Source: Octopus vulgaris
Taxonomy: Eukaryota
DNA length: 64,000 nucleotides
Assembly (NCBI GenBank): GCA_951406725.2
Contig: OX597821.1
Location: 58,156,001 to 58,220,000 of the forward strand
Reading direction: 5' to 3'
Positions 24,375-29,814 of this stretch are shown one piece after another (position 1 is the stretch's first letter; every line of letters starts with the position of its first letter). Under the pieces are notes generated by a model. It searched no databases and was not told the origin of the DNA. It saw only the letters and a list, made by a program, of their open reading frames with translations. A program made the position numbers and the translations under genes.

Positions 24375-24833
24375 TCTTGTATCTTTCATTTGTTTCAGTC
24401 ATTTGACTGCGGCTATGCTGGAGCATTGCATTTTAGTCGAACAAATCGACCTCGGGACTTATTCTTTGTAAGCTTAGTTATTTATTCTATCGGTCTCTTT
24501 TTGCAGAACCGCTAAGTTATGGGAACGTAAACACACCAGCATCGGTTGTCAAGAGATAGTGGGGATCAAACATAAACACACATACATATACACACATACA
24601 CAGACACACATACATACATACATACATACATACATACATACATACATACATACATACATACATTCATATATATATATATATATATATATATATGATGGGC
24701 TTCATTCAGTTTCCATCTACCAAATCCACTCACAAGGCTTTGGTCGGCCCGAGGCTAAAGTAGAAGGCATTTGCCCAAGGTGCCACGCAGTGGGATTGAG
24801 CCCGAAACCATGTGGCTGGTAAGCAAGCTACTT
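24375..24833 (-). mobile_element. SINE family B, body of a copy split by a 4.7-kb insertion (head at 29545-29585)
   Basis: SINE sequence stops at ggtaagcaagctactt (24818-24833) and resumes with ggtaagcaagctactt-accacacaac (29545 onward). Confidence 0.9.
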
Positions 24834-25019
24834 TTATTCATAAAATTGGCCATGAAAGCCGTACGCAGATGAGTAGCTGCGGGCTGGACAAAAACATTAA
24901 TGAGATGAGGATGATAATGATGAACAGAAATAGGAGGGGCACCGCCGCCCGCCGACCGATAACCCCTCGAAATCACTATTCTTTTATTCAATTTTACATA
25001 AAAAATTACAAAATTTTTC

Positions 25020-26239
25020 TTAATCTTCCACTTTCTCATCCGAGCCCCTGCATAAGTTCCCTGCCGCCTGCAGGAAAGCCTGTATCGGCAGGTCGGAGTC
25101 CGGAAGAAAAGCAAATTCTTCTTTTCCAAAGGTCACCAAGACCTCAAAAAGTTCTTTTTGTCGTAACGTTGTCGGTCGAGAACCCTGTTCAAGAATCCCT
25201 CGACAGCATCTCCCTTGTGATAGAAAATGACGGGTTCCACCTCTTCCTCATGGGGAAGGGCCTCAGCCTGCTCTGTCAGTGGCACAATTTCCACTGACGG
25301 AGTCTTTTCTGCCGGTGGCACACATCCTACCGGCAGATCATTGGGATCTGTCGGCGGCACATCAACCTCCACCGACCGTCTCCCATTTTTTTTCTTCTTT
25401 TTCTTCTTTTATTTCTCTTCTTTGGGCTTGCGGTAGTCAGGGCCTCTATCGGCTTATCCGTGAGGTCTGCCTCCTCTCCCGCAACCTGTATGTCTTTGGG
25501 GGAGCAACCATTGTTGCTCGCCTTTCTTTTCCTTTTCGGGGAGGCAACCGCCTCCACTACTTCCTCCGTCTCCCCCTCCAATGGGGTGGGGGCGGAGGAC
25601 ACCTTTTCTTTTTTCCTCGGCTCCAGGGCCTTACCTCGGCCCTGGGGGCAGTTCTTTTTGATGTGGCCTGGTTCCAGGCACAGGTGACACTTGGTGGGGC
25701 GACCCTCAAGTATCACCGGATACCTGGCCCCGGCCATTACCAAAATATCAGGGAATACTAGGCCTCCGGCCGACTGAGTCCAAAGGGTTAAAACTGCTTT
25801 TGACCCTGTCTAATCGGTCGCGGCCTCCACCCTGACATTGAGGAACTTGGTTCCGCTACCACCCAGACCTCTCCAAATGGTCTGTTCTATCCATTTAGAC
25901 CGAATTCCGGGCGGCAGCCCACATACCCAAGCCCTCATTATTTTCCTCTCACAATATCTCATCCTCTTCTAGGGGTTGACTTACCGCAGTGCAAGCTATC
26001 TCAGGGGTGTCAAATAGCAACCACACCGTTGCATACCTGACACTCCTGGATACAAAGTAATTTTTTGCTGGCAAACATTTTGCCAGCTCTTTATCAATGA
26101 TACTCTTGTCGAAGGGGGCGATGGCGCCACGCGACCTAGAATAGATCCGTAGTACCACCGTCCTCCTCTCAAGGTTTTGAAGCCACTGCTTGGATGGGAC
26201 AATCTCCCACTCCAAAGCGGTAGCCTTATTTTCCTTCAT
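25020..26239 (-). pseudogene. Gag-like ORF1 with CCHC zinc knuckle (stops and frameshifts)
   Basis: MKENKATALEW...; AWVCGLPPG; YPVILEGRPTKCHLCLEPGHIKKNCP (CX2CX4HX4C), followed by a K/R/E-rich tail. Confidence 0.8.
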
Positions 26240-27414
26240 ATTAAAATGTCCACATAAAATAAACAACAAAAATTCTAAACACAGGAAAAATAGAGAAGAC
26301 TGTTCAATAAAGGCGGAAGAAATGAAAATAATAGTTCATATCAAAAATCTCTTATTATAAAAGGCAGATTTTATCTGCCTCCCAAACCGTTTGTTTTTTA
26401 TACAAATCTACAATATAGAATTTCTTCAATTAGAATTTACCTAACATTTTTATAAGTAGAATACATCGGGTCGTGGCATGTAAAGTTTTTTCAATTTCAC
26501 CCCCAATTAAGCAAAAATTCAAGAAAACTAACTATTTAACGATTTTTCTCTTTCAGTTCAAGTGATTCACTCATACCATTACCACTACACTTTTTCCTCC
26601 TTTCTCTTTGCAAGTGTGCAACGATTAAAGTGAAAGTATTTATATAAAAGGGATGAACTGCTTCACTCATGCTATCACCATAATTTCTCCTACTTTCTCT
26701 TTGCAAGTGTACCTTAAACCACTACTCAAAAAAACAACACAGCAAACAGAAACAAATAAATACATAACGATTTACTACTCACACAATTTCTTCAATTAGA
26801 GTTTACCTATGATTTTTCAAAGTACTTCCATTCGGTCATGGCATACAAAATTTCTTTCAATTTCACCCCCAATTAAGAAAAAATTCGAGAAAACTAAATA
26901 TTTTACCATTTCACTCTTTCACTTCAAAGCCTTTACTCTGCCTATTACTCCCACTTCCTCTTTACACACATAGACACGCAAATATACAAATAAAATTGTA
27001 AGCTAACGTGTGTGTGTGTGTGTGTGTGTGTGCGTGTGTGTGTGTGTGTGTGTGTGTGTGTGTGTGTGTGTGTGTGTGTGTGTGTGTGTGTGTGTGTGTG
27101 TGTGTGTGTGTGTGTGTGTGTGTGTGTGTGTGTGTGTGTGTGTGTGTGTGTGTGAGACAGGGATGAGCCAGCCAGACTGGTCATCCTTTTTGCTAGAAGA
27201 AGATCACCTATGGTCTTATATGCTACACCACTGGTTTTCAGTTCATATTAATCAAATTAATATTCACAACAAGAAGGACTATTCATTATAATACATCAGT
27301 TACACACATTTACCCTGGTTCCATTTCGATCAACTGCACAAACATTTGCCATTTGACACATGTATGTAAACAAATTCCTTTCTTAAAAATTTCAATTCAT
27401 TTTCTTTTTCAATT

Positions 27415-27770
27415 CATACAAAGTTTTTTAGGACGAAAATAAGATCTAAAGTATATCCTAAGTAGCAGAAAGATCGCCCAAAAGTGTATATAGATATTTC
27501 AATGTATGTATATATTCATCTATACACAGATGTATGTATAACGTGTGTGTATATATTTCCATAGACGTAACCATTCACTCCCACAAGTTTTTTAGGACGA
27601 AAATAAGATCTAAAGTTATCTCTAGAGTAGCAGAAAGATCGCCCAAAAGTGTATATAGATATTTAAATGTATTTATATATTCATCTATACACACATGTAT
27701 GTATAATGTGTGTGTATATATTTCCATAGAGGTAACCATTCAATCCATACAAAGTTTTTTAGGACGAAAA
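27415..27770 (+). repeat. ~165-bp tandem repeat inside Helitron (2 units plus start of a third)
   Basis: aagttttttaggacgaaaataagatctaaag...agtagcagaaagatcgcccaaaagtg repeated. Confidence 0.85.
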
Positions 27771-28018
27771 CCTTTACATATAAAAGAAAGGTTGTGTGTC
27801 TGTCTACTCCGATTTAGATTCCTAACTACTCCCACATTTTGCGATGCAGTTTATCCAAAACCGGGTATCTTATAGTCGTGATTCATATCGAGCCCTTCTG
27901 GGTGTTAGCGCGCGTCTACGATGAGTCTACGATTTTACAAATAATTTACCATCATTTTTTTCCATTTTAATGCATATTTTTTTAATAAAGGGAAATAACT
28001 CTCAAACTTCACACCAAT

Positions 28019-28540
28019 ATGCGTGCTCATATGCGACGTAATATCACATCAGTAGCATTTCCTCACACCCTCCTTGCACTTGGCGAAGGCAAAATACCAG
28101 GGGATGAAAATGGTAATATTGCCATCGATTCCATTTGTACCATTGTTAAAACGCCTTCTGATCTCAGAGATGCAGTGTTCCCAGATCTACAAGCTAATTA
28201 TCAGAATATGGATTGGATTGGCCAAAAGGCTATACTGGCCCCGAGGAATAAAACTGTTCACCATATTAATGATGAAATGCTAAAACTCATTCCTGGGGAA
28301 GTCTATGTATATCAGTCTATCGATACAACTCCTGACCCAGAGGACGTCATCAACTATCCAATAGAGGTACTCAATTCCTTTGAGCACCCCGGACTACCAC
28401 CACACTTTCTCAAACTTAAAGTTGGTGCCCCTATAATGCTCATCAGAAATTTGGTTCCCCCAAAACAATGCAATGCCACACGTTTGATCGTTAAGTCCTT
28501 ATCTCCCACCGTAAACTTATATCAATATTTGCCTAAATAA
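28019..28540 (+). pseudogene. Helitron Pif1-family helicase fragment
   Basis: LLALGEG, KAILAPRN..VHHIN, YQSIDT, YPIEVLNS..PGLPPHFLKLKVGAPIMLIRNL..CNATRL. Confidence 0.92.
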
Positions 28541-29814
28541 TGATCATAATTCAGTGCAATCATTAACAGTACTTTCAAGCAATTCAGCCCCGAGCAACGC
28601 CGGGCAATTCTGCTAGTTGTTCATAAAAGAAAGAAAAAGGAAAAACAACAGCTCACACAGAGTAAATAAAAATATATAGTTCCAGGCAAAAAAAAAATTC
28701 AGGCCACAATGGTACTCCGGCCCTATTCGATCTCGGCTCCTTTGCAGCTCTCAATTTGATGGTAAAATCCAGTTCTCTGCTTGTAACTAAGCAAAAAATC
28801 CATAGTTTTCGAAACCTCTTAGTTGGTGTGAAAACAACCATAATTCTTCATTTTTTTCTCCACTGTAGAAAAACAACAATTTACATCAAATAATTCCGGT
28901 TTGCTTCTCGGGCTGTTCAAACAAGCTCACCGACAACAAGCCACACACACACTTTGCTTGTAAAACAAGCAACAAATTCACCGCCAAGAGTAAGCGAAAA
29001 TGCCCCAGAGCAGGGCAGAATATACTGTAATAAAAATAAGACAATAATTCTACAAACCCGCTCACCCTAACGTCGACCAGCTACACGTCTTCAATAAAGG
29101 CGGGAAAAAAATTGTTCAATCTTCGGAGGCAAAGACACTCCCCCAAACAACAATTCTCACAATTATTTTAAAATTCTTCAAAAATGAACAAATTTTTAGT
29201 AGGCACAACACTCCTCCAAGCAACAATCCTCATAATTAAGTGAGAAAAATATTCACTCAACATAAACCGCTAACTAGGAAGATGAATACGCCCCCAAACA
29301 AAAATTATCACAATTGAGCGAGAAAAAATATTCGCTCCATGCAGGCAGAACCAGAATTCTGAATCTAGTAGGACTTCCCGCTTGTACAAAAAAAAAAATT
29401 CTCAACAAAAATTCCCACTGGACCCAAAAAAACAGAATCCTACCTTATAATGGAGCTTCAAAATTTTTCAATTCGAGGCGGCTTCAAAAGCATGTCTCAC
29501 CGCTTCAGTGCCAAACGCAACACTGACTCGCACATGCACATTGAGGTAAGCAAGCTACTTACCACACAACCTCTCCTGCGCCTACACAATCACTCTGGCT
29601 AGATGCAATTTAAAAATGAAAAGACACAAATACAACCGTCACTAAAAATGGTTAAGTGTGCAAGTCAGCACAAGCATTGCTATTCACTGAAAAGAAAGTG
29701 CTGTATTGAACAGAAAATGTTCTGTTCGTGGCTTAGAGTTATTTTGACTCTTATTTCTAGCAAGACTGGTGCTCACTTGCACTCTTAGTCACGTTTAGTG
29801 ACGACTGTATATAT

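Follow-up and report, generated by a model that had tools for sequence, protein, structure and literature searches.

An ORF1-only retroelement of the octopus Octopus vulgaris was found at one fixed base in the tRNA-like head of an abundant short interspersed element (SINE), where it was likely pasted by the machinery of a young long interspersed element (LINE); we put the probability of this reading at about 90%. The element lies on the minus strand of a 64,000-nucleotide stretch of contig OX597821.1 (assembly GCA_951406725.2, positions 58,156,001 to 58,220,000), hereafter called the window, whose first letter is position 1. It carries the first open reading frame (ORF1) of a LINE, and no second one (ORF2) was found in it. 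The reverse transcriptase (RT) and endonuclease that inserted it likely came from a young 5.4-kb LINE of the L1/Tx1 group, which occupies the same base of the SINE.

The 16-mers at 24818–24833 and 29545–29560 are identical and flank the element as a perfect 16-bp duplication. On the minus strand the head of the SINE (29545–29582) is followed by the element and then by the SINE remainder (from 24833 down to about 24382), and the insertion point lies directly after an A-box-like motif, the B-box-like motif staying downstream of the element. The first-pass annotation, which had placed the element in the tRNA-like head of a SINE, in the orientation of the SINE and with a perfect 16-bp target duplication, and which had stated that the insertion parts the A box from the B box, was right in these respects. 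It overlooked that the element is a non-autonomous ORF1-only passenger, half of whose length is a Helitron. Other copies align to positions 1–926 and 3197–4711 of the element, without the middle. The segment that they lack, at 26348–28616, has the ends and the insertion site by which Helitrons are recognised (Table 1) and contains a fragment of a Pif1-type helicase at 27989–28540 (PF21530, E=2e-13). Since this segment is a nested Helitron of 2.27 kb, the native length of the element is about 2.44 kb, made up of a 5' untranslated region, the decayed ORF1 and a 3' untranslated region that is short.

Table 1. Features of the SINE-inserted elements in the window (positions are those of the window)
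Feature	Positions	Strand	Remarks
Window element, ORF1-only non-LTR (long terminal repeat) passenger	24834..29544	-	native length about 2.44 kb once the nested Helitron is removed
Host SINE ("family B") 5' head with A-box-like motif and upstream copy of the duplication (29545–29560)	29545..29582	-	
Upstream part of the 5' untranslated region (UTR), about 930 bp	28617..29544	-	aligns to copies without the nested insert
Nested non-autonomous Helitron	26348..28616	+	5' TC; 3' hairpin followed by CTAG; flanked by A and T; not duplicated at the target
Decayed ORF1 (predicted RRM-RRM-CCHC)	25160..26239	-	three pieces, two frames
7-nt tail motif	24872..24878	-	complementary to the target top strand just 3' of the insertion point; single occurrence in the element
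3'-terminal hairpin, 4-bp stem and 5-nt loop	24848..24860	-	common to the autonomous LINE; compensatory change in the window subfamily
Downstream copy of the 16-bp duplication	24818..24833	-	
Host SINE remainder: B-box-like motif, body, internal microsatellite, tail	24382..24833	-	
5'-truncated copy of a different ORF1-only subfamily	57104..57317	-	same SINE base, minority (A-type) variant; tail motif with matching change

The pieces of ORF1 in the window element are 51–61% identical to an intact natural ORF1 at locus L092, and the zinc knuckle gave a match to Pfam zf-CCHC (E=0.0018) that stays under the cut-off of that model. The first 210 amino acids of an intact natural passenger ORF1, which the CCHC knuckle follows, were modelled (pLDDT, the predicted local distance difference test score, 80; nine sequences), and the model matched tandem-RRM proteins with E about 5e-5 and low TM-scores. 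The passenger protein is predicted from this model to consist of two RRMs and a CCHC knuckle, i.e. to be a LINE ORF1 protein (ORF1p) and not a capsid gag. Hence, of the gag/zinc-knuckle label first given to the element the knuckle stands and the gag does not; a gag of LTR or retroviral type was rejected because the model match is of RRM type and there are no LTRs.

Locus L047 holds, in this order, a SINE head, the duplication, a 5'-truncated RT element, the duplication, an ORF1-only element, the duplication and the SINE remainder. The autonomous partner, whose assembly had been proposed in the first-pass annotation as a check, was obtained by a search with an RT fragment (150 best of 30,284 candidates scored). 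It is a family of about 5.4 kb (5,437 nt) with an ORF1 frame of 487 aa and an ORF2 frame of 1140 aa. In a natural copy (L082) ORF2 contains Exo_endo_phos (PF03372), RVT_1 (PF00078) and zf-RVT (PF13966), that is, an N-terminal apurinic/apyrimidinic-type endonuclease (APE), the RT and a C-terminal CCHC, and the partner ORF1 also contains zf-CCHC. The best relative of this ORF2 among solved structures is the human L1 ORF2 protein (ORF2p; E=1e-66, versus 2e-19 for R2). The copies have no LTRs, a fixed 3' end, variable 5' truncation and a target duplication. The closest named proteins came from Argonauta hians and Octopus sinensis, the latter being the single hit when ORF1 homologues were searched for; homologue names, cluster members and the Atlas yielded no Tx1 label. 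In an RT tree of 34 rows (midpoint root; five rows spanning half of the domain; all rows unlabelled, without a named Tx1 reference) the SINE-targeting copies grouped with other families of the same genome and, more deeply, with the Argonauta protein. The partner is a non-LTR retrotransposon of the L1 group, likely Tx1; it was filed in this way because no labelled Tx1 sequence is in the tree. The APE type and the sequence-specific insertion into a repeat are Tx1-like, as is an ORF1 with RRM (in the passenger model) and CCHC, a combination characteristic of Tx1. A sister family with 76–77% RT identity (L101–L111), which is young and has open ORF2 frames of 1138 aa, terminates in (TC)n at 10 of 11 loci, as the Kibi family does; the stretch fetched for L105 stopped short of the 3' end.

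The site was found to be fixed in the partner and in the passengers alike. The exact 3'-terminal 31-mer of the partner occurs 105 times in the genome, and 101 occurrences continue into the first letters of the target; with two more that have a one-letter variant (L088 and L181), at least 103 of 105 lie on target, the others being L182, which is off target, and one that was not seen. All of the 30 partner 3' ends that were fetched have the target, followed in 29 by the SINE remainder and in one by another element. Partner stretches picked by RT match and ORF length, blind to their flanks, end at the target in 24 of 24 cases, 22 of them directly in the SINE remainder. For the passengers, 46 loci selected by ORF1 (the 30 best, plus 16 picked from the 65–67% subfamily with long frames, after the 150 best of 12,112 candidates had been scored) have the target on both sides in every case. 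The subfamily of the window element, counted by an exact 25-mer, is on target in 14 of 16 cases and off target in two. A search with its last 177 bp (40 best of 687 candidates scored) gave 30 loci including the window copy, of which 24 lead on to the SINE remainder (in one of them an insert lies between) and two to the target and another element; L030 has the SINE head at its 5' junction and L022 falls short of the 3' end. No insertion in reverse orientation was seen across the junction lists examined. The site and the orientation in the SINE head are fixed, as had been proposed when the family was first taken to target an abundant SINE. The SINE may also serve the family as a safe haven, and an insertion would abolish polymerase III transcription of the SINE copy that it splits, two consequences put forward in the first-pass annotation that are conjectural.

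The copy at 57104–57317 is flanked by its own 16-bp duplication (57088–57103 and 57318–57333) with copy-specific letters on both sides; its earlier assignment to the identical SINE position holds. Among 30 loci of its subfamily, its own copy included, matches of ORF1-only type were found in 12 and no ORF2 match was found. The A-type SINE variant, which makes up about 6% of the exact empty sites, hosts every one of the 25 copies that are on target; the other five are off target.

No ORF2 follows ORF1 in any of the 46 passenger loci. Long open ORF1 frames of 399–418 codons were present in 25 distinct copies. Between the two main passenger subfamilies, within which copies differ by 0.9% and 1.9%, the ratio of non-synonymous to synonymous substitution (dN/dS), calculated after two duplicate rows had been removed, was 0.12 over the first 215 columns and 0.23 over the whole of ORF1, with dS near saturation. 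As judged by these ratios, selection is shown to act on the passenger ORF1, and the passengers form a lineage of their own, whose ORF1 relatives are local L1/Tx1-group ORF1s at 26–31% identity.

The length of the exact duplication varied among 44 single insertions (9 bp in 15 and 15–18 bp in 16), and 16 bp is not a rule of the family. Where the target differs from the 5' letters of the family, the 5' side usually keeps the letters of the family, which indicates that full-length RNAs likely start with a short tag mimicking the far half of the duplication. Of 32 insertions of the young LINE, 23 are in the SINE subfamily that fits its tag, against a genome-wide share of 38%; the older subfamily of the window element has 0 of 16 there. 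Either tag matching or timing could by itself account for such a preference. With the partner the passengers have no more in common than ~35 nt at the 3' end and one short motif. The shared part includes a 3' hairpin with a 4-bp stem and a 5-nt loop, which is 95% paired over 16 tails, one pair being changed on both sides; none of 500 shuffles scored as high, a comparison among related sequences that gives no probability. An Rfam scan of five loci for a 5' ribozyme, a weak test, gave only microsatellite-driven matches.

The proposed mechanism is target-primed reverse transcription. The partner ORF2p would bind the 3' hairpin, nick the bottom strand directly after the A box and copy the RNA, the top strand being cut 9–16 nt downstream. 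Full-length RNAs would begin with a tag of 6–8 nt that mimics the far half of the duplication, likely aids 5' joining and would rebuild the full target. With the target rebuilt, later elements could insert in front, and arrays would grow. Mixed arrays in single SINE heads were found, one of nine units over about 17 kb (L240–L241) and another of at least seven units (L242–L243); the order of the units may record the order of insertion. Together with the shared 3' hairpin, the mixed arrays speak for mobilisation of the passengers in trans. The specificity would most likely reside mainly in the endonuclease, possibly aided by a tail motif of 7–9 nt pairing with the displaced top strand.

One possibility, which we hold only tentatively and which would supplement the endonuclease and not replace it, is that this pairing just downstream of the nick helps to choose the target variant. 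The exact reverse complement of the first nine target bases occurs a single time in the 5,437 nt of the partner, in the 3' UTR at -80, and is present in 45 of 46 distinct copies. In the passengers, whose UTR cannot otherwise be aligned, a shorter form of 7 nt stands at about -45. The 57-kb subfamily shows a joint change of motif and target, all of its on-target copies lying in the ~6% variant. In the junction tally one form of the motif was associated with T-type targets 82 times and with A-type targets never, and the other form with A-type targets nine times and with T-type targets once; the motif is missing from all six sister-family tails. A hybrid of 9 nt could likewise account for the frequent duplication length of 9 bp. 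Against this, one evolutionary change amounts to one contrast and the copies are not independent, and the A-type SINE may have been common when the 57-kb subfamily, with an endonuclease of its own, was active. Furthermore, 38 of 130 junction tails are on target without the exact motif, and in one passenger subfamily, whose motif is degenerate, all 16 of 16 copies hit the target. The shuffle p for the 7-nt matches is 0.1–0.19 (0.01–0.04 for the autonomous tails), and the palindromic core of the target makes such matches easier. Tail-target pairing has been described for SART1, R1 and R2, where the RNA pairs with the primer strand; the motif described here differs in being complementary to the top, non-primer strand, 45–80 nt from the 3' end. 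It is therefore a speculative proposal that an APE-type LINE is partly RNA-guided, the 7–9 nt motif letting passengers steer a shared ORF2p to different SINE variants, with tail motif and 5' tag being re-tuned as SINE subfamilies expand.

The host SINE is short (about 400 bp), interspersed and of high copy number, with a purine-rich repeat tail. We presume, as a guess, that this family B is the Lys-related OK SINE of octopus. Exact empty target 30-mers were counted in 2.8 Gb (30,053, 49,785 and 5,215), giving at least 85,053 empty sites. Empty SINEs differ by 12%, and by 4.4% within the youngest subfamily (n=9). A- and B-box-like motifs are visible in the head, and by eye 10 of 11 positions of the A-box motif fit the consensus; ARAGORN gave no gene and the Rfam tRNA match had only E=6. 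The near-palindrome that had been pointed out in the target is real in the window copy, but it is unneeded, since less palindromic SINE variants are targeted as well or better; a palindrome as recognition principle was rejected because the young family prefers less palindromic variants.

A functional tRNA or other small-RNA gene as the true target, with the SINE being hit by resemblance, is highly unlikely. Published target-specific elements do use tRNA and snRNA (small nuclear RNA) genes (PMC4640811, PMC8869645, in the parts of these papers at hand), and a weak alignment of the SINE head with tRNA genes was obtained (score 55 versus a shuffled maximum of 51), but none of the 30 tRNA loci retrieved (about six isotypes) has, by eye, the letters that follow the D-loop GG in the target, and no listed flank continued into a tRNA gene. 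On these two grounds targeting of tRNA genes was rejected. The ancestral target may still have been a tRNA.

It was also asked whether the LINE had landed in one SINE and the SINE-LINE-SINE unit had then been copied by retrotransposition or duplication. In favour of such copying, full-length copies vary very little at their 5' junction, the enrichment of the young LINE in the SINE subfamily named above has p=1.4e-4, and a Mantel test gave a weak positive trend (rho 0.30, p=0.065). However, over 22 copies, from which L097 and L100 were excluded because another element adjoins them at the 3' end, the terminal 2.5 kb of the LINE are on average 1.1% apart, whereas the adjoining 150 bp of SINE are 8.2% apart (median 6.7%). 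Divergence is thus 7-fold higher in the host halves than in the LINE bodies, and the host halves come from several SINE subfamilies. SINE heads are present on copies truncated at many 5' points (e.g. L005, L009, L019, L023, L025, L030, L047, L131, L136, L147, L247 and L254), copy-specific letters are duplicated on both sides (at 57 kb in the window and in L227), and many different subfamilies share the site. The divergence contrast and the truncated copies indicate that the insertions are independent; the one-composite propagation that had been named at the outset as the danger to a targeting claim was rejected on this evidence, and we regard it as even less probable than a tRNA-gene target. 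At a substitution rate of 0.0036 per Myr (PMC13282606, in the part at hand), the 1.1% between partner copies corresponds by our own estimate to roughly 1.5 Myr.

The least probable explanation, loosely specific L1-type nicking at short A-rich sites combined with SINE abundance, or survival bias against insertions elsewhere, draws on the T^AA junction pattern of L1-type sites and on the very high abundance of the SINE, but was rejected by the counts, as the target background is about 1.5e-5 per strand-base for exact matches and 5e-5 to 1e-4 with looser matching (1e-5 to 1e-4 in all) against at least 103 of 105, and copies only ~1% diverged already show the fixed site in one orientation. The tabulated 3' ends thus sit at the SINE base far above background, and not in the unrelated T-rich L1-type flanks that the first-pass annotation had named as the contrary outcome.

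Several points, the Mantel trend among them, weigh against the main reading. The passenger ORF1 is 29% identical to that of the partner, no closer than to sister families (31% and 26%), and blastn finds no match between the window element and the partner. In view of this weak identity and the lack of a match, the older passenger subfamilies may actually have been driven by a relative now extinct. Some copies lie off target (one of 104 seen for the partner, two of 16 for the window subfamily and five of 30 for the 57-kb subfamily), and L004 and L008, among the first 30 loci of the window subfamily, do not fit the target. The best-scoring copies were sampled (40 of 687, 150 of 30,284, 150 of 12,112 and 40 of 432 candidates), which biases the set to young ones. 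The Tx1 clade of the partner is something that we infer, its RT tree having no labelled Tx1 rows.

Some further observations were made. One and the same 5' end can be found on several ORF1 subfamilies, and one ORF1 subfamily with several 5' ends (L224–L238 and L204–L222), which suggests swapping of 5' UTRs. Among the contigs examined for expression, one of X8, with 29 nt of SINE head and the 5' end of the element, was not counted under a 31-nt rule, nor were the junction contigs in X3, X13 and X16, which extend 1–27 nt beyond the 3' junction. A full second SINE ("family A") lies at 30237–30470 of the window (minus strand), at the same base of another family-B head. The tail of the family-A SINE resembles that of the LINE (30 nt, 90–96%); one of the 31 family-A 3' ends examined is at the family-B site, and about 13 of 31 (by eye) lie inside family-A copies, at two fixed positions. 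Further sister families of the partner (L112–L116) have other 3' flanks, L113 and L114 being head-to-tail tandems and L112 and L116 having related sequences downstream. In L034 (3209–3739) the endonuclease part is inverted upstream of the RT part, possibly by 5' inversion or a later rearrangement. Helitron-related pieces are present elsewhere in the window (~32159–33181 and 35771–35950) and in L037, L093, L101, L111 and L117. Long inverted repeats with arms 79–90% identical, at 4594–5417, 14738–14895, 16362–16627 and 18661–19273 of the window, are probably foldback or MITE-type (miniature inverted-repeat transposable element) DNA elements.

No tail common to the host SINE and the LINE was found by blastn; hence the LINE exploits a SINE that it does not appear to mobilise, and the passenger in turn exploits the LINE, reversing the usual relation in which SINEs exploit LINEs. 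If the partial RNA guidance is true, this would be a three-tier parasite chain of SINE, SINE-targeting LINE and half-LINE, with a natural record of guide-target co-evolution, and a contribution of tail pairing would offer a simple route to LINE retargeting. The youth of the family, its long open ORF2 copies, the tens of thousands of natural empty targets in several variants and the close sisters with other targets make the system tractable for the open question of how an APE endonuclease, or its RNA cargo, becomes sequence-specific. For repeat annotation, automated consensus building will fuse such elements with SINE halves.

A retroelement with a fixed place in a SINE-like repeat has been claimed before; if that is, as we presume, the case of Bov-A and Bov-B, it was not true targeting. 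Bov-A is built from the two ends of Bov-B (PMC4494074; this and the following comparisons refer to the parts of the cited papers at hand). RNA genes, repeats and "transposons" are given as targets of target-specific elements (PMC4640811, PMC5035012, PMC8869645), those of Tx1 including piggyBac, Mariner, Harbinger, LTR elements, U2, U5, 5S, satellites and microsatellites, with (TC)n as the target of the family Kibi (PMC4494074). In Octopus vulgaris 13 recently active L1-Tx1 families have been counted, with no target analysis in the part at hand (PMC13282606), and Tx1 is not mentioned in PMC9115989. The literature searched, which did not cover Repbase and Dfam, where one may be listed, contained no SINE-targeting LINE.

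The nearest likeness is to the Tx1 LINEs that target transposons, namely Tx1L in Tx1D (piggyBac), Tx1-Mar in Mariner-N4_AMi, Tx1-8_Crp and Tx1-4_AMi in LTR elements and Tx1-9_AMi in Harbinger (PMC4494074). These are also of APE type, use a fixed site in another repeat, insert in tandem and have their site in common with non-autonomous passengers (SINEU in their case), truncated copies show their independence, and (TC)n relatives (Kibi) exist. In contrast to them, the elements described here insert into a tRNA-like SINE, between the two boxes of its promoter, and they keep to a single base and a single orientation with a fidelity of about 98%; for Tx1-Mar two regions and two orientations are known. 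The passengers, moreover, encode their own ORF1, and the family is a young one in which long open ORF2 copies are present. The passengers resemble HAL1 (PMC5753468) in carrying ORF1 only, in forming multiple subfamilies and in their presumed reliance on a partner ORF2p; unlike HAL1 they are not mammalian L1, are site-specific and have an RRM-RRM-CCHC ORF1 with the 29% identity to that of the partner, so that they work like HAL1 and are not filed as HAL1. As in Dada (PMC4640811, PMC8869645), the position is fixed in or next to the polymerase III (Pol III) A box of a multicopy small-RNA sequence, but Keno, Utopia, NeSL-1_TV, LIN15/25_SM and Dada target functional low-copy genes, whereas here a parasitic repeat is hit, of which at least 85,000 exact sites are empty. 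The short conserved 3' hairpin, here common to driver and passengers, is like the stringent-type recognition of ZfL2-1/2 and UnaL2 (PMC4176376). Relative to the literature searched, it is the target class, a SINE, that is new; the kind of element is known, and ORF1-only passengers accompany it here.

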